NCBI GenBank assembly: GCA_003345555.1
Contig: PRDJ01000045.1
Location: 1 to 6,370 of the forward strand
Direction of reading: 5' to 3'
Length of the DNA stretch: 6,370 nucleotides
DNA from: Candidatus Thorarchaeota archaeon
GTDB taxonomy: Archaea; Asgardarchaeota; Thorarchaeia; Thorarchaeales; Thorarchaeaceae
Part shown: one piece after another, positions 1,723 to 6,370 of the stretch
How positions within the stretch are numbered: the stretch's first letter is position 1
How the letters are laid out: each line of letters starts with the position of its first letter
Notes under the pieces: generated by a model
What the model saw: the letters and a program-made list of their open reading frames with translations, nothing else
Databases searched by the model: none
What the model was told of the DNA's origin: nothing
Translations under genes and position numbers: made by a program

Positions 1723-2028
1723 TTGCACAAGCTTCTTGAGAAGATATTCGCCTCACGAGCCCAAACAAGAGTCGTTCAACATTTTCTTGACCGACCGAAG
1801 GAATTCTTCAATCTTAGCAGGATAGCCAAAGACACGGGCTTGGCTCACTCAACAATTCACAGAGTCATGCAGCCTCTCGTTGATATTGGCTTCGTCAAGG
1901 AAATAAGAGTCGGCCAACAGATTCGTTTGTTCATTCTCGAGACTGAAGAGACGAAAAGCAAGATTATCGCTGACTTCTACAAACAGATTAGACCGTTCCT
2001 TGAAGAGAAGTCAAGAGCTACTTCCTAG
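1723..2028 (+). CDS. Winged helix-turn-helix DNA-binding protein (putative transcriptional regulator)
   Basis: 101 aa with a TTG start and GGAGGG SD at 1709-1714. Helix-turn-helix FNLSRIAKDTGLAHSTIHRVMQPLVDIGFV is followed by a beta-wing (KEIRVGQQIRLFIL). Starts 22 nt after pyrH, so probably co-transcribed. Confidence 0.82.
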   Translation: MHKLLEKIFASRAQTRVVQHFLDRPKEFFNLSRIAKDTGLAHSTIHRVMQPLVDIGFVKEIRVGQQIRLFILETEETKSKIIADFYKQIRPFLEEKSRATS

Positions 2029-3008: not shown

Positions 3009-3129
3009 GCCGAGGTAGCCAAGCTAGGCCAACGGCGAAGGACTCAAGATGTTTGATGGTTGGTCGGCCTTCCGATGAGAAATCCTTTCTCGTAGGAGTA
3101 CGCGAGTTCGAGTCTCGCCCTCGGCACCA
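3009..3129 (+). tRNA. tRNA-Leu (anticodon CAA) with a canonical-position intron and encoded CCA
   Basis: Acceptor stem GCCGAGG (3009-3015)/CCTCGGC (3119-3125), discriminator A at 3126, CCA at 3127-3129. D stem GCC/GGC. Anticodon stem AAGGA (3038-3042)/TCCTT (3083-3087) with anticodon CAA at 3045-3047. Long variable arm CTC-GTAG-GAG (class II, Leu type). T arm GCGAG-TTCGAGT-CTCGC. Confidence 0.96.
3049..3081 (+). other. 33-nt tRNA intron at position 37/38 with a bulge-helix-bulge-type splice motif
   Basis: Removing 3049-3081 restores the 7-nt anticodon loop CTCAAGA. The central 4-bp helix CTCA (3043-3046) pairs perfectly with TGAG (3076-3079), with a 3-nt bulge AAA (3080-3082) at the 3' splice site. 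Confidence 0.9.
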
Positions 3130-3205
3130 TTCATTCCTTTGGGGGGCGATGAACATCGCGGGCCTTTGCAGTCATGCCGCTCTGTGAGAATCGAAATTTG
3201 GGTCG

Positions 3206-3218
3206 AAAAGAAGAGAGG
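3206..3218 (-). terminator. Putative archaeal pyrimidine/oligo-T terminator after the small-ORF cluster
   Basis: The minus strand reads CCTCTCTTCTTTT immediately after the sORF-C stop at 3221. Confidence 0.4.
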
Positions 3219-3220
3219 GC

Positions 3221-3343
3221 TCACGTAGCCTCTAGCGCAAGCACCTCTTCAAGTGTGGGCCCACGCTCGGTGGGTGATTCTGGGTCGAGTACATGTGTGC
3301 TCTTGGAAGTGCTCTGGGAGGATTCATTGGGCGAACTACTCAT
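3221..3343 (-). CDS. Small hypothetical protein sORF-C, 40 aa: MSSSPNESSQSTSKSTHVLDPESPTERGPTLEEVLALEAT
   Basis: ATG at 3343 is preceded by SD AGGTGA (3350-3355) with a 6-nt spacer; TGA stop at 3221-3223. Ser/Thr-rich N-terminus and an acidic, helix-like C-terminus. Below the ORF-track length cutoff; no family recognised. Confidence 0.55.
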   Translation of the reverse strand: MSSSPNESSQSTSKSTHVLDPESPTERGPTLEEVLALEAT

Positions 3344-3349
3344 CGATAT

Positions 3350-3448
3350 TCACCTAGAGAAGTACGCGTGGGCGATTGCCTCAGTCGTCATCGGGACCTT
3401 GAGGGATACTGCCCTTCGAGTTCTGTTCGTGATTCTTACCTGAGCCAT
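3350..3448 (-). CDS. Small hypothetical protein sORF-B, 32 aa: MAQVRITNRTRRAVSLKVPMTTEAIAHAYFSR
   Basis: ATG at 3448 is preceded by a strong SD GAGGTGA (3453-3459) with a 4-nt spacer. Ends AGG-TGA at 3350-3355. Shares a C-terminal motif with sORF-A. Confidence 0.6.
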   Translation of the reverse strand: MAQVRITNRTRRAVSLKVPMTTEAIAHAYFSR

Positions 3449-3452
3449 GCTT

Positions 3453-3560
3453 TCACCTCATTACGACGCATGTCATGTACCGGTATGCCACAGCCTTTGT
3501 GGATTGGTACTTGGTGTCCCTCATCACGGAATCATTTCGAGAATTGCTTTCGTGCGCCAT
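3453..3560 (-). CDS. Small hypothetical protein sORF-A, 35 aa: MAHESNSRNDSVMRDTKYQSTKAVAYRYMTCVVMR
   Basis: First substantial ORF after the TATA box at 3592-3599. ATG at 3560; ends AGG-TGA at 3453-3458. Shares a C-terminal motif with sORF-B. Confidence 0.52.
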   Translation of the reverse strand: MAHESNSRNDSVMRDTKYQSTKAVAYRYMTCVVMR

Positions 3561-3591
3561 CGTGATTCACATGATATGCTGCCCAAGTTCA

Positions 3592-3599
3592 GTATATAA
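3592..3599 (-). promoter_or_regulatory. TATA box for the small-ORF cluster
   Basis: The minus strand reads TTATATAC, a close match to the archaeal TTTA(A/T)A(A/T) box. The predicted start site near 3570 is about 10 nt before the sORF-A ATG. The BRE is weak. The element is partly symmetric, so plus-strand use cannot be excluded. Confidence 0.6.
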
Positions 3600-3617
3600 T
3601 GCGGAGCCACATCTTAG

Positions 3618-3647
3618 GGTCACGACACAGAGTCACATATCGTGACC
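3618..3647. repeat. 8-bp inverted repeat GGTCACGA-N14-TCGTGACC (candidate transcription-factor site)
   Basis: Perfect arms at 3618-3625 and 3640-3647, 18 nt upstream of the minus-strand TATA box. The repeat is seen directly; its function is inferred. Confidence 0.55.
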
Positions 3648-3722: not shown

Positions 3723-5435
3723 CTATTTCCTCAACAGCTTAATCATTTCCTTCAACGGATATGTGTTGATTACGTCCTTGGCCTCAAGCCACCCACGACG
3801 CGCTTGGAACACACCAAACTGCATGTTGTCAAGTTCACCTATGCGATGAGCGTCCGTGTTTATTGCGATTTTCAATCCGTATCGCTTAGCCGCTCTGAGA
3901 TTCCCATCATTGAGGTCTAGCCTCTCAGGATGACTGTTGAGCTCCATGATGACACCTGAAGCGCGGGCGGTCTCGAATACTCTCTCCAAATCGACTTCGT
4001 ACTCCGAGCGCTTGAGCAGAAGCCGGCCTGTGGGGTGGCCCAAGATGTCCACATGTCTATTCTGAATCGCAGCACAGACCCGATCAGTGATTGCCTCCTT
4101 AGTGTCCTTCATCTTTGAATGGACAGATGCCGTCACAACGTCCAGCTGCTGAAGTACTTCGTCGCTGATGTCCAGATTTCCATTTGAGAGTATGTCGACC
4201 TCGGCGCCCTTTAGAACTCTCATCTTCCATCTGCCCGACGAATTAAACTCATCAATCTCACTAATCGATGCAAGTATCTGTTCCTCAGTCATGCCACGGG
4301 CTATGGTCAGGCTCTTTGTGTGGTCTGATATGCAGTAGTATTCGTACGACTTCCTGGCTGCGGCATCGAGCATCTCTTCAATGGAATTGGCACCGTCTGA
4401 TTTGTCAGTGTGAGTGTGGAGATCGCCCCGAATGTGCTTTAGTTCTATCAATTTGGGAAGTTCGTGATGCTGTGCTGCCTCAATCTCGCCCTTATCTTCT
4501 CTGAGTTCCGGTTCGATATAGTCGAGACCTACTGCACTGTAGATAGCATCCTCTTCTCTTCCTGCAACCTGTTCGTCTCCTCTATATAGACCGTACTCGC
4601 TGAGTCTCAGACCTCGCTTCTGAGCGATTGTCCTCACATGCACGTTGTGATCAATGCTGCCCGTGAAGTACTGAAGACCAGCTCCATAACTATCTGCGGG
4701 GAGCACGCGAACGTCAACCTGAATGCCGCTCGCTAGACGCACAGAGGACTTGGTAGGCCCGTGAGCAAGGACATCTGCAACACCCTCAAGGTGAACGAAC
4801 GCGTTCATCAGCTGCTCTGCTTCATCCGTTACGACAAGTACATCGATATCACCAATGGTCTCTTTCCTGCGACGAAACGAACCTGCAATAGTGATCTTTC
4901 GTACGCCCTGAATCTCTCTCAGCGAAGCCTGAATGCCCTCGACAATTGGAAAGGCATTTGCCAGCAACGTTCGGCCGAAACCAGCACGTGCGAGCTGGAT
5001 ACCCTCAGATATCTGGTCCACTGTCTTCTGCCCGATCCCTTTCAAACCCTTAAGCTGCCCCTCTTTGACTGCCTTTTCGAGAGACTCTAGGTCCGTTATG
5101 CCGAGGTTTTCATACAGTAGTTTCATCGTCATCGGACCGACACCGGGGATAGCGTCTAGTTCTCTCACCTTGACCGGGATTTCCTTTCGCAACTGTTCGA
5201 GTTGATTGATTGACCCTGTCTTGAGATAGGCATCGATTTTGTCCGCTAGTGACTTCCCGACGCCCGGAATTCCAGTTAGCTCCCCGCGAGCGGCTATAGC
5301 CTCGATGTCCTCACCGAGAGAGGCAATAGAACGTGCAGCCCTACTGTACGCCTTCGGCTTGAATTTGTCCGTCCCCTGTATTTCCAGAAGAACCGCCATC
5401 TCGTTAAGCAATTGCACGACATCGTTGTTCTTCAT
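3723..5435 (-). CDS. polX: DNA polymerase X fused to a PHP (3'-5' exonuclease/phosphoesterase) domain, 570 aa
   Basis: HhH repeats (GIPGVGKS, AIPGVGPM, GLKGIGQK), GSFRRRKETIGDIDVLV (catalytic DxD), QVDVRV (third Asp) and YFTGS. PHP motifs GDLHTHT, ISDH, GAEVDI, SVHS, ILGHPTGRL, INTDAH. The start is placed at ATG 5435 (MKNNDVV), which has a GGGAG upstream and an ATGA overlap with the previous stop, rather than the track's GTG at 5450. Confidence 0.95.
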   Translation of the reverse strand: MKNNDVVQLLNEMAVLLEIQGTDKFKPKAYSRAARSIASLGEDIEAIAARGELTGIPGVGKSLADKIDAYLKTGSINQLEQLRKEIPVKVRELDAIPGVGPMTMKLLYENLGITDLESLEKAVKEGQLKGLKGIGQKTVDQISEGIQLARAGFGRTLLANAFPIVEGIQASLREIQGVRKITIAGSFRRRKETIGDIDVLVVTDEAEQLMNAFVHLEGVADVLAHGPTKSSVRLASGIQVDVRVLPADSYGAGLQYFTGSIDHNVHVRTIAQKRGLRLSEYGLYRGDEQVAGREEDAIYSAVGLDYIEPELREDKGEIEAAQHHELPKLIELKHIRGDLHTHTDKSDGANSIEEMLDAAARKSYEYYCISDHTKSLTIARGMTEEQILASISEIDEFNSSGRWKMRVLKGAEVDILSNGNLDISDEVLQQLDVVTASVHSKMKDTKEAITDRVCAAIQNRHVDILGHPTGRLLLKRSEYEVDLERVFETARASGVIMELNSHPERLDLNDGNLRAAKRYGLKIAINTDAHRIGELDNMQFGVFQARRGWLEAKDVINTYPLKEMIKLLRK

Positions 5436-6370
5436 CTGTAAGTCTCCCACTCTTTATCCCAAGGAACAATGGACCTTGTTGCATTAACTACTGCATGAAT
5501 GTTGTCCTCCGGCGCGTCAATCGGAATCACGCAGCCGGGCGCAACAACCAATCGCTCAAGTCCAGCGGATCTTATTGCCTCTAGGACCTTCTCTTTTGCT
5601 TCATCTGGAGTGCCGGTCCTCAGTACACCATTATGGTCAATGCCACCAAACACTGCCATTCTTGACTGGTTCTTCATCTGTTTCAACGTAGGAGCTACGC
5701 TCTGATCCGCCCAGTTCAGACCATCCAAGGTGGGTATTCGTGAAAGCCGCTCAAATCGGATTCGCTTGTCTTCGACTCCAGAATGAAGATGCATCAGGAT
5801 GAGCCCGGCCTTGCGCCTCAGTTTGGACAACACCTTGAGGTCGTATGGCAGAACGAACTCGTCGTACTGCCTGTCAGTGACAGCTTCGTACGTTCCGTGC
5901 TGTGAGGCGAGGAAAATACCATCCGCACCCGCATCAATAGTAGCGCGGGCAAAATCAACCATTACACCCGTTATGAGTTCGAGTGCGCTTTTCATAATGT
6001 CTGGATTCTTGTCCATGTACTCCTTCAGCTTTCCTTTGCATAGTAGGTCCGCCACCATCGGAGGATCGAACACAGTAGCCAATGTGGGCACGCGGGCTTG
6101 CGCATACGCATGTATGAGTTGGACGGCCTGGACCTGTTTGCCAAACTCCCCAGTATTGACGTCCAAGGGTTCGAGTGTCTCCCAGTCAGCAGATGAGCAA
6201 ACGGCACAGTTGTCGCATTTGGTGGACCCAGTAATCCCCCCGTCATAGACCGGTGCGCAACCCCAGTCGACGACCGGATAACAACTGTGAAAGGATATCT
6301 TGATGATGTCATGGTCGAACGTTCTGTGCAGTGCTATCTCGGCTTCTGCAAGCCCCTCTGGAGTGCGGTC
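5432..6370 (-). CDS. Uroporphyrinogen-decarboxylase-like (URO-D/MtaA/CmuA superfamily) protein, 5'-truncated by the window edge
   Basis: The frame is open from 6370 to TGA at 5432, so the track's TTG start at 6166 is internal. Reads DRTPEGLAEAEIALHRTFDHDIIKISFH...DWETLEPLDVNTGEFGKQ...DAGADGIFLA...ILMHLHSG...DGLNW...VFGGID...GTPDE...LVVAPGCVIPIDAPEDNI, typical URO-D-like TIM-barrel motifs. HemE versus methyltransferase function is not resolvable. Confidence 0.88.
   Translation of the reverse strand, partial: DRTPEGLAEAEIALHRTFDHDIIKISFHSCYPVVDWGCAPVYDGGITGSTKCDNCAVCSSADWETLEPLDVNTGEFGKQVQAVQLIHAYAQARVPTLATVFDPPMVADLLCKGKLKEYMDKNPDIMKSALELITGVMVDFARATIDAGADGIFLASQHGTYEAVTDRQYDEFVLPYDLKVLSKLRRKAGLILMHLHSGVEDKRIRFERLSRIPTLDGLNWADQSVAPTLKQMKNQSRMAVFGGIDHNGVLRTGTPDEAKEKVLEAIRSAGLERLVVAPGCVIPIDAPEDNIHAVVNATRSIVPWDKEWETYR

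Follow-up and report, generated by a model that had tools for sequence, protein, structure and literature searches.

A putative microprotein regulon of the Thorarchaeaceae and its copy between tRNA-Leu and polX

Does the stretch between a tRNA-Leu gene and the PolX gene of a Candidatus Thorarchaeota archaeon encode proteins, and if so, what could these proteins do? An original prediction proposed that this region (positions 3206-3647 of the window, which is the whole 6,370-nucleotide stretch of DNA analysed here) holds a dedicated, regulated operon of three unrecognised microproteins on the minus strand. No known prokaryotes are more closely related to eukaryotes than the Asgard archaea. To our knowledge, almost nothing is known about their small proteins and gene regulation, and no thorarchaeote has been cultured. 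The main features of the locus are as follows.

3009-3126, plus strand: tRNA-Leu(CAA) gene with an intron, found by Rfam and aragorn -i
3206-3218, minus strand: pyrimidine/T tract 3' of the stop codon of C
3221-3343, minus strand: ORF of microprotein C, 40 aa, read from the sequence
3350-3448, minus strand: ORF of microprotein B, 32 aa, read from the sequence
3453-3560, minus strand: ORF of microprotein A, 35 aa, read from the sequence
3723-5450, minus strand: gene of PolX, a DNA-repair polymerase

The inverted repeat, the TATA box, the three ORFs and the T tract were all located on the minus strand where the original prediction had placed them. The intercistronic gaps are 4 nt (A-B) and 6 nt (B-C). 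The tRNA-Leu(CAA) gene was overlooked by the default run of ARAGORN and recovered with aragorn -i. B and C share one reading frame and are split by a TGA, while A lies in another frame, an arrangement that looks at first like a broken gene. Additionally, two plus-strand ORFs of 89-90 aa (3174-3443 and 3293-3565) cross the operon region, and the adjacent tRNA gene provides an integration-site context, as tRNA genes are common integration sites. These observations would suit a reading in which the ORFs are not genes but remnants of a longer gene that has decayed, noise antisense to a plus-strand gene, part of a structured non-coding RNA or a scar of integration next to the tRNA. Such a reading is very improbable, because each ORF is separately conserved with its own start and Shine-Dalgarno (SD) site in dozens of genera, and codon-position statistics favour the proposed frames.

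The individual versions of this reading were also rejected. A broken longer gene is rejected because of the separate conservation and because, across the family, B-to-C spacers of 5 nt, which put C out of frame, are roughly as frequent as those of 6 nt, which keep it in frame. The plus-strand ORFs are broken in a same-genus syntenic orthologue (L004), in which A, B and C are all intact. Rfam finds only the tRNA in the region, and the fold of the whole transcript has no excess RNA structure (z = +1.27), which speaks against a structured non-coding RNA. An integration scar at the tRNA is rejected on the grounds that the synteny from PolX through A-B-C to tRNA-Leu is kept in 30 species. The operon layout is not a product of chance, as it recurs in more than 130 Thorarchaeota loci, far beyond chance expectation. 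On comparative grounds, the minus strand of 3206-3647 can be recognised as a self-contained transcription unit of three separately conserved microgenes that appear to be protein-coding.

The order, starts, stops and SD sites of A-B-C are kept across many genera. The original prediction had also implied dN/dS values below 1. This stands clearly for A, with 0.17 in frame against the G003 orthologue, and for C, with 0.18 in frame against 0.76 and 5.4 in shifted frames (the range of the shifted frames over the A and C comparisons being 0.76-5.4); for B, the pairwise value of 0.69 comes from 13 changes only. Codons of invariant residues vary synonymously across 108 A, 78 B and 26 C sequences, indels in the ORFs keep the frame, and the stop-to-stop frames are tight over hundreds of matches. 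Together with the kept order and signals, these data lend support to the predicted dedicated, regulated operon, and they support the view that A, B and C each belong to a small-protein family of its own, probably under purifying selection at the codon level.

Microprotein A is net basic (about +3, counted from the translation), and its family comprises 108 distinct members of 33-37 aa. The A profile was found in 79 of 85 Thorarchaeaceae genomes and in none of 314 other Asgard genomes. A combines a conserved N-terminus with the C-terminal helix motif S-T-x-A-[LIV]-x-[YH]-A-Y...R-stop, and the third positions of its invariant Thr/Ala codons have an entropy of 1.6-1.9 bits. AF2 predicts two helices (pLDDT 66), the C-terminal one at pLDDT 71-80. 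The first approximately eight codons of A scarcely vary synonymously; thus, conservation there may act at the nucleotide level or result from gene conversion. A genus-specific A N-terminus is common to all three paralogues of this genome, which points in the same direction.

Microprotein B is strongly basic (about +5) and ends in the helix S-T-x-A-I-x-x-A-Y-F-[RS]-R-stop, with synonymous variation at the invariant T, A and Y residues. Its family includes 78 distinct members of 22-35 aa, and AF2 predicts a C-terminal helix at residues 22-31 with a pLDDT of about 90. The A and B profiles match each other, and the two peptides are basic paralogues with the common C-terminal helix T-x-A-[LI]-x-x-A-Y. 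In both, the two ends are conserved and the central spacer varies by up to 7 residues. At the amino-acid level, conservation is highest over the last approximately 12 residues and at the terminal Arg, although their codons vary synonymously, and the conserved residues lie on one face of the C-terminal helix predicted by AF2. The A/B peptides are hydrophilic; they lack Cys and contain little Trp or Gly.

Microprotein C is acidic (about -5). Its N-terminal part is hypervariable, and its C-terminus, L-[ST]-[LIV]-x-E-V-L-A-L-E-A-T-stop, is conserved as a helix of its own. The C profile matches in 54 of the 85 Thorarchaeaceae genomes and in none of the 314 other Asgard genomes, and almost every match lies in a frame that measures 36-42 codons from stop to stop. 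In the part of C upstream of the terminator-like hairpin described below, Leu and other hydrophobic positions are encoded by CTN in some sequences and by TTR in others, a sign that selection acts on the amino acid.

In agreement with the original prediction, in which no family was recognised, Pfam and NCBIfam gave no family at E<=10 for the peptides, PADLOC gave no match, PHROGs gave matches at E 0.06-0.3 only, and the best PDB profiles reached E 0.18 (N-terminus of eS1) and 1.2. The best ESM Atlas score was 0.77, which serves as a lead only. The literature on Thorarchaeota/Asgard small proteins, leader peptides and sORFs yielded nothing on this operon system. Judged by these searches, A, B and C match no known family, and the operon set appears to be undescribed. 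Standard annotation misses or mis-calls the three ORFs. C occurs in public protein sets as 59 unnamed clusters, and in several public gene calls B and C are joined because TAG was taken for a Gln codon. The 68-77 aa B-C "fusion proteins" in ENA and Logan are gene-calling artefacts, since a TAG is present in the DNA and such products arise only if TAG=Q is assumed in translation. Likewise, a 90% cluster joining a C peptide to 418-aa proteins is spurious.

The promoter of this operon is nearly invariant. The promoter block on the minus strand includes the following elements.

3592-3599, minus strand: TATA box TTATATAC, read from the sequence
3605-3610, minus strand: half-site GTGGCT, 13 bp beyond the GTGACCC half-site, beside the TATA box at a BRE-like position
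3617-3623, minus strand: half-site GTGACCC, 13 bp downstream of the GTGAC of the palindrome, kept in all copies
3632-3646, minus strand: palindrome GTCAC-N5-GTGAC, a putative operator at the upstream edge of the block, read from the sequence

The inverted repeat had been predicted at 3618-3647, and the palindrome arms, GTCAC (3642-3646) and GTGAC (3632-3636), lie within that span. Conservation begins abruptly at the palindrome, which is nearly invariant among 21 aligned copies. The TATA box of the copies is an invariant (A/T)TATATAC at a constant 31-32 nt from the ATG of A. The conserved promoter thus spans about 60 bp, from the palindrome through the two half-sites at 13-bp steps to the TATA box, and it is better conserved in the aligned copies than the ORFs behind it. 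The pattern was found in 81 of 85 Thorarchaeaceae genomes, with 1-9 copies each, and in none of 314 other Asgard genomes, which represent other families of the phylum. It has no match among viral contigs, and the control pattern read backwards has 0 matches. Archaeal TATA-to-start spacing is well established, and from it a transcription start near 3570 is predicted.

The palindrome would be bound by a transcription factor, and the GTGGCT element is a putative repressor site overlapping the TFB contact. A dimeric factor, of the TrmB type or of similar geometry, would occupy the palindrome and the repeated half-sites and would switch all copies of the regulon together. The known counterpart is the Thermococcales glycolytic motif (TGM) of TrmBL1, TATCAC-N5-GTGATA, with which the palindrome shares an identical TCAC-N5-GTGA core, the spacing and the position upstream of a TATA box; TrmB-family factors are also known to regulate transporters (PMC4706686). 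In contrast to the TGM, the flanks read GTCAC instead of TATCAC, the palindrome is followed by two additional half-sites in direct orientation, spaced by 13 bp and extending as far as the BRE position, and the lineage is Asgard instead of Thermococcales. The genome encodes at least five TrmB-domain proteins, at C57:61652, C33:41537, C42:72215, C80:24843 and C40:2616, none of them linked to the loci. The resemblance of the motifs is what suggests a TrmB-type regulator.

The distribution of the promoter and of the profiles indicates that the regulon is restricted to Thorarchaeaceae and that the window carries its PolX/tRNA-Leu-linked copy. Clustering of neighbouring genes, annotated with Pfam and NCBIfam, distinguished several locus types. 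The type of the window, PolX -> A-B-C -> tRNA-Leu, is the one found in 30 species. In 19 sister loci, A-B precedes a DHA3/MFS_3 transporter; in a further type, A..A'-B'-D precedes an MFS_1 transporter; and other loci consist of A-B alone or A alone. Two of the sister loci lie at G000:C65:19290-19484 and C33:34797-34992. An A-type gene always lies directly behind the promoter and B-type paralogues follow A; the unit then either ends or continues with a C gene or with a transporter gene of the DHA3/MFS_3 or MFS_1 class. In total, 46 loci have A/B genes directly 5' of MFS genes. Among the best NCBIfam matches of the MFS_3 genes behind A-B are Mef(A/B/C), Tap, Tet(V) and EntS, all far below the curated cut-offs, so they place these genes in the superfamily and do not identify orthologues. 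The window copy and many others are without a transporter, and genes for export or immunity are absent from the window. The loci occupy syntenic places in the chromosome and do not belong to mobile islands.

Among about 137 loci, the 22 neighbour families that recur most often include PolX, hydrolases, MFS, Zn-ribbon, wHTH, SOR and similar proteins; in the window, a syntenic wHTH gene is located at 1723-2028. These families bear on the possibility that A and B, alone or together with C, are exported, for instance as leaderless cationic archaeocin-like antimicrobials, signals or RiPP precursors. The MFS protein of the sister loci would then be an exporter or an immunity factor, and any enzymes that modify the peptides would have their genes at other sites. 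Cationic paralogues of about 30-37 aa that stand in tandem and have no signal peptide do resemble multi-peptide leaderless bacteriocin loci, the 46 MFS loci imply co-transcription with efflux-type genes, and the dispersed copies with a common conserved end recall RiPP precursors, which can occur as dispersed copies sharing such an end. However, no maturase (radical-SAM, YcaO, lanthipeptide, P450 or protease/RRE) is present among the 22 families, which also turns the evidence against the peptide precursors considered in the original prediction. Conserved ends around a variable middle reverse the pattern of RiPP precursors, in which the leader is conserved and the core varies, and in C only the C-terminus is conserved. 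Given also the hydrophilic composition of the peptides, the many copies lacking a transporter and the absence of usable PADLOC and PHROGs matches, we regard export as quite improbable; we know of no MFS pump that exports 35-residue peptides.

Further information is contained in the junctions between the cistrons and in the end of the transcript.

3449-3458, minus strand: A/B junction, where the AGG TGA of A is the SD of B, with a 4-nt spacer, read from the sequence
3344-3355, minus strand: B/C junction, where the AGG TGA of B is the SD of C, with a 6-nt spacer, read from the sequence
3206-3250, minus strand: terminator-like hairpin around the last codons and stop of C, followed by the pyrimidine/T tract, from folds

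The SD sites expected in the original prediction were thus found as the SD-like sequences GAGGTGA and AGGTGA, which overlap the stop codons of the first and second ORFs. At about 200 junctions, the last Arg codon or codons together with the stop form the SD of the next cistron (AGGAGGTAA, AGGAGATAG or GAGGTGA; spacer 4-7 nt), and this arrangement suggests translational coupling across the junctions. After transcription, translation would pass from one cistron to the next in a coupled relay, and the products would be made in a fixed ratio.

At the end of the transcript, folds of 36 loci were surveyed and a 12-bp family stem was scored. In this stem, 91.9% of cells are paired, against 19-48% with the partner slid, and 14 cells are changed on both sides, against 4.3 +/- 1.5 in shuffles, where 0 of 500 reach the observed value. 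The hairpin of the window itself folds at -19.4 kcal/mol. This covariation places the stop codon of the last cistron within what appears to be a conserved RNA hairpin with a T tract next to it, and the hairpin explains part of the conserved C-terminus of C.

Another option in the original prediction was a small toxin/antitoxin-type module. In such a module, basic A and B would be toxic binders of nucleic acids or membranes and acidic C would neutralise them. Their opposite net charges and the apparently tight coupling of their translation would fit such a module. However, C is missing from 31 of the 85 genomes, most of which keep A, and operons with A-B or A only, without C, are common and conserved. 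Loci at syntenic positions instead of mobile islands and the lack of a PADLOC match also argue against the module. A prediction of the A+B+C complex with C as a partner scored 0.03 and gave no answer, which counts neither for nor against an interaction. Nothing supports this option as such, and we consider it hardly credible.

Among the functions listed in the original prediction, that of regulatory peptides remains the best suited to the sequence evidence. We tentatively propose, as quite possibly correct, that A, B and C are small proteins with a regulatory role in trans and that a transcription factor governs the regulon to which they belong. In this view, A and B would be disordered basic tails carrying a short C-terminal amphipathic helix, whose face T-x-A-[LI]-x-x-A-Y looks like a docking motif, while C would be an acidic tail with its own conserved C-terminal helix. 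The products would act in trans, and their candidate targets are the co-transcribed MFS efflux-type transporters or the regulator of the regulon itself.

The main rival reads the same loci differently. A and B could be cis-acting leader peptides that arrest the ribosome at the Arg-stop when sensing a metabolite or a ribosome-targeting compound, and because their stop codon doubles as the next SD, stalling would gate the translation of B, C or an MFS pump. The 46 MFS loci have A/B where bacterial leader peptides sit, one class of them having DHA3 genes downstream, and this placement, like the downstream SD within the A/B stop codons, also suits cis control and counts against action in trans. 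The always promoter-proximal A has about the length of the exit tunnel. The conserved N-terminal segment and the conserved aromatic C-terminal segment ending at the putative stall site, Arg-stop, mirror the sensor/effector layout of SpeFL, the ornithine-sensing arrest peptide of Enterobacteria, which is promoter-proximal, has 34 aa, lies upstream of an operon including a transporter and combines a conserved N-terminal segment with an aromatic-rich C-terminal segment ending in Arg-stop (bioRxiv 10.1101/604074).

A and B also occur where there is nothing downstream to regulate. A short ORF immediately 5' on the transcript is found at the 46 MFS loci and in the A->B->C relay, but not in the stand-alone A and terminal A-B operons, both of which are under selection. 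The stand-alone A locus, known from one genus only and with nothing conserved downstream, is kept at a dN/dS of 0.13 (two species). Several lineages (L003/L077, L029, L034 and L083) have A-B operons ending directly in a terminator hairpin, and there B still ends in F-R-R or F-S-R with CGC/CGT/AGA codons. Such codons cannot act as an SD, so selection on the terminal Arg of B concerns the amino acid, and Arg persists where no SD is required. These two observations, the variable distance between the N- and C-terminal modules and the single conserved helical face favour trans-acting proteins over leaders. Additionally, the genes that arrest would regulate in the window are microproteins themselves, the transcript has no excess structure, and A and B have no sequence relationship to SpeFL. 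We know of no archaeal arrest peptide. Arrest is therefore rather unlikely in our judgement, and its boldest form, which would make A and B the first nascent-peptide sensors of archaea, gating drug-efflux-type MFS pumps and C across a Thorarchaeaceae-wide regulon, is unlikely.

Three observations go beyond the original prediction: the family-wide multi-locus regulon, the sister copies before MFS transporters, and the RNA hairpin that accounts for part of the conservation of C. The locus offers what appear to be three new microprotein families with strong comparative support for translation, and a promoter that ranks among the most clearly defined cis-regulatory modules seen to date in any Asgard lineage. 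As this promoter occurs in 1-9 copies per genome and is better conserved than its genes, its regulator is directly testable. The locus and its sister copies also present clear dual coding, since Arg-Arg-stop doubles as a Shine-Dalgarno site and a covarying terminator stem encloses a stop codon, and a concrete link between sORFs and efflux-type MFS transporters. Such a link could stand either for a new class of small transporter regulators or for the first leader-peptide control in archaea.

Comparison with known systems places A, B and C near several of them. The nearest arrest peptide is SpeFL, beside TnaC and fungal AAP-type peptides that stall at termination; A, with 33-37 aa and an aromatic-rich helix before an Arg-stop end, resembles SpeFL. 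The differences from SpeFL are two or three sORFs in tandem, some of them stand-alone or operon-final, the variable module spacing, the archaeal host and the lack of a Rho/hairpin switch among the features found here. The MFS_3 genes of the 19 sister loci, preceded by short ORFs, resemble the leader-controlled DHA3 macrolide efflux genes of mef/msr operons, from which the window copy differs in having no transporter at all. Bacterial mef/msr leaders are shorter and act through attenuation. Garvicin KS and aureocin A70 are encoded by 3-4 tandem genes for similar cationic leaderless peptides of about 30-35 aa, and A and B are likewise cationic, tandem, leaderless and of similar length. However, leaderless bacteriocins are hydrophobic or amphipathic and Trp-rich, with adjacent immunity and ABC export genes, whereas A and B are hydrophilic and their loci have no such adjacent genes. 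The proposed trans-acting regulators come close to Methanosarcina sP26/sP36 and to E. coli SgrT, MntS and AcrZ, nutrient- or stress-regulated microproteins of about 20-60 aa, some of them soluble, which bind a transporter or an enzyme; the likeness extends to a dedicated regulator, as proposed here. There is no homology to any of these, and the Thorarchaeaceae system is set apart by several paralogous copies per genome and by three peptide classes in one coupled operon.

Three short ORFs, here called A, B and C, lie on the minus strand of the window between a PolX gene and a convergent tRNA gene. Minus-strand reading and the ORF listing place them where the original prediction had put them, with spacers of 4 nt (A/B) and 6 nt (B/C), and the TATA box, inverted repeat, SD-like motifs and T tract that it had described were all found in the window sequence.

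3009-3126, plus strand: tRNA-Leu(CAA) with an intron of ~33-36 nt (Rfam; aragorn with introns allowed)
3221-3343, minus strand: C, 40 aa (ORF listing)
3350-3448, minus strand: B, 32 aa (ORF listing)
3453-3560, minus strand: A, 35 aa (ORF listing)
3592-3599, minus strand: TATA box TTATATAC (read from sequence)
3632-3646, minus strand: inverted repeat GTCAC/GTGAC (read from sequence)
3723-5450, minus strand: PolX gene (pol-beta and PHP domains)

The stops of A and B are each overlapped by AGGTGA, and a pyrimidine/T tract follows the stop of C. The tRNA at 3009-3126 was not reported by default ARAGORN. Further along the window lies a 101-aa winged-helix gene (1723-2028, plus strand) with an IclR-type HTH and a weak TrmB match in its homologues; 11 of the 30 PolX-type loci have it in synteny with the operon, and it is a candidate regulator by position only.

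Conservation is stronger in the promoter than in the ORF behind it. Across 21 aligned copies it sets in sharply at the palindrome and continues through GTGACCC, GTGGCT, TATA box and GTGAA motif to an ATG whose distance is fixed. DNA searches of 40 relatives recovered many copies as well as a syntenic orthologue with 78% identity (locus L004) in the same-genus genome G003, while two further copies of the promoter-proximal part, at C65:19290 and C33:34992, were found in the window's own genome, G000, besides its PolX-type A-B-C operon:

G000:C65:19290-19484 (L002:1501-1695), plus strand: promoter copy with a stand-alone A
G000:C33:34797-34992 (L003), minus strand: promoter copy with A and a B-like ORF, hairpin and T tract at the end

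Allowing up to two mismatches, the promoter pattern occurs in 81 of the 85 Thorarchaeaceae genomes (1-9 copies each) and in none of the 314 genomes of the phylum's other families, and the reversed pattern, used as a control, gave no matches; the counts over the 85 genomes describe distribution and carry no significance test, related genomes being non-independent samples. The exact pattern located 118 further loci in species-representative genomes, labelled Candidatus Thorarchaeota almost throughout, with a few Hermodarchaeota, Promethearchaeota or "uncultured archaeon". Two weaker look-alikes in G000 precede a 415-aa gene to which no function was assigned (C68:31701-31731, minus strand) and an MFS_1 transporter (C11:341-392, plus strand), the latter with an A-like start that may be degenerate.

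In about 110 of 116 loci the ORF immediately after the promoter is 33-37 aa long (A); its N-terminus is conserved and its C-terminus reads S-T-x-A-[LI]-x-[YH]-A-Y...R-stop. In most loci it is followed by a shorter, basic peptide (B) ending in S-T-x-A-I-x-x-A-Y-F-R-R-stop; B is a paralogue of A, and the two profiles match each other. The third, acidic peptide (C), present in many loci, is conserved only in L-[ST]-[LIV]-x-E-V-L-A-L-E-A-T-stop. Translations give net charges of about +3, +5 and -5 for A, B and C, respectively. Six-frame profile searches found A in 79 and C in 54 of the 85 family genomes, almost always within tight stop-to-stop frames, and neither in the 314 other Asgard genomes. 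A, B and C are all intact in the G003 orthologue. None of the peptides matched Pfam, NCBIfam, PADLOC, PHROGs, PDB or ESM Atlas; some family members are present in public gene sets, always unnamed or as "hypothetical protein". Several ENA/Logan calls join B and C (68-77 aa; L141:942-1148 and L142:398-616 on ENA contigs), and such fusions arise only when TAG is read as Gln; they were rejected as gene-caller artefacts on short contigs. With the family alignment, AF2 predicted two helices for A (pLDDT 66; 71-80 in the C-terminal helix) and a confident C-terminal helix for B (residues 22-31, pLDDT about 90) behind a low-confidence N-terminal part. The conserved T, A, [LI], A and Y, at i, i+2, i+3, i+6 and i+7, would share one helix face. 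All three G000 paralogues begin with a genus-specific M-A-H-E-S-N (M-A-L-[AT]-T-N in other genera), which points to either gene conversion or a common partner with which they co-evolve.

Codon statistics bear on whether these ORFs are genes at all. At the invariant Thr, Ala and Tyr of A and B, entropy is near zero at codon positions 1-2 and 1.6-1.9 bits at the third, and the conserved Leu/hydrophobic positions of C alternate between CTN and TTR or ATT/GTG codons. Nei-Gojobori estimates comparing the window with G003 put dN/dS at 0.17 for A (shifted frames, 1.15 and 2.13) and at 0.18 for C (shifted frames, 0.76 and 5.4); the value for B, 0.69, comes from only 13 changes and is uninformative. 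The longest ORFs in the gap are antisense to the operon (plus strand, 3174-3443 and 3293-3565; 89 and 90 aa); both are broken in the G003 orthologue, and the best reading is that they merely shadow the genes on the minus strand. Because of the codon-level constraint, these broken ORFs and the lack of excess RNA structure in the operon transcript (z = +1.27), pseudogene, antisense and ncRNA readings were rejected, and it is very improbable that the ORFs are not genes.

Coding and regulatory signals overlap at the cistron borders. At ~200 junctions, the final Arg codon(s) of one cistron together with its stop form the SD of the next (AGGAGGTAA, AGGAGATAG or GAGGTGA), 4-7 nt ahead of the ATG; the window reads ...AGG TGA aagc ATG and ...AGG TGA atatcg ATG. 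Selection nonetheless acts on the terminal Arg as an amino acid, because B in terminator-ended A-B operons still finishes in F-R-R or F-S-R, with CGC, CGT or AGA codons that are useless as an SD.

Ahead of the T tract, the final seven codons of C, together with its stop and a further four bases, fold into a hairpin whose stem has 12 bp and whose loop is GAAG. Across 36 loci the stem is paired in 91.9% of cells, against 19-48% with slid partners, and 14 cells show double-sided compensation, against 4.3 +/- 1.5 after shuffling (0/500 shuffles reach 14). Two of the covarying pairs involve third codon positions: that of the Val codon pairs with a base beyond the stop, and that of a Leu codon with the stop's own middle base (TGA with CTC, TAA with CTT). 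The conserved C-terminus of C is therefore in part RNA-constrained. Three observations argue for selection on the peptide too: conservation ahead of the stem is at the amino-acid level, E-V-F-A-W-E-A-T is kept with a differently built hairpin in two species of the window's genus, and the register in which the frame runs into the stem is constant, indels notwithstanding. In operons ending at B (L029, L034, L083, L003), the stop of B likewise lies inside a hairpin with a T tract after it; a last stop codon within the terminator stem is thus a design that recurs in the regulon and is not confined to C.

Clustering and annotation of the genes around about 137 promoter copies, with classification of the peptides, sorted the loci into types that recur in synteny. 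The window's type, PolX followed by A-B-C and a convergent tRNA-Leu(CAA), comprises 30 loci, the intron-bearing tRNA being recognised in 14 of them. In 19 loci, A-B precedes an MFS_3/DHA3 transporter (TIGR00900 at 2e-62; the best named matches include Mef, Tap, Tet(V) and EntS, none of which reaches its curated cut-off). In 27 loci, A is followed by a second unit, A'-B', a conserved ORF of ~50 aa and then genes for an MFS_1 transporter and a Zn-ribbon protein. Between the first A and A', the sequence resembles another operator/promoter (GTCAC...GTGAC). The ~50-aa ORF ("D") was seen between A'-B' and the transporter, ~460-620 nt downstream of the TATA box, in L053, L065, L068, L035 and L036, starting M-S-I-P-S-N-P-Y-N-F-G-L in L053 and similarly in the other four. 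Further types are A-B-C variants beside other genes, A-B operons ending directly in a terminator and, in the window's own genus, stand-alone A.

Taken together, comparative analysis shows in the window a conserved promoter that combines a palindrome with repeated half-sites, three cistrons that look translated, stop-embedded SDs and a covarying terminator. The unit is a real, previously undescribed microprotein operon within a Thorarchaeaceae-specific regulon. The prediction of a dedicated, regulated microprotein operon is supported by the family-wide promoter, the A/B/C families and the codon constraint on A and C. Its products may well be small regulatory proteins acting in trans, the reading we favour at somewhat under even odds, because the stand-alone A is preserved (dN/dS 0.13) in front of a diverged spacer (the G003 orthologue does not conserve what follows A in the C65 copy), terminal A-B operons exist in several lineages, the distance between the conserved ends of A/B varies and helical conservation is one-sided. 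The same four observations count against A and B being leader or arrest peptides that act in cis, which we hold to be a distinctly less probable, though serious, explanation; it is suggested by the position of the two peptides ahead of efflux-type MFS genes, by their tunnel-like length and by the SD of the next cistron, which their stop codon hides. Exported or antimicrobial peptides or RiPP precursors are unlikely and a TA module very much more so; what remains of our expectation goes to something else.

The system is not described in the open-access literature searched, and its regulatory and dual-coding features are unusually clear. The window palindrome has the same TCAC-N5-GTGA core and spacing as the TrmBL1 site (PMC4706686); with at least five TrmB-domain genes in the window's genome, we infer a regulator of TrmB type, no particular factor being assignable. 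As in SpeFL, the enterobacterial ornithine-sensing arrest peptide, A and B end in a conserved aromatic segment running up to Arg-stop, a likeness that speaks for the cis-acting leader.
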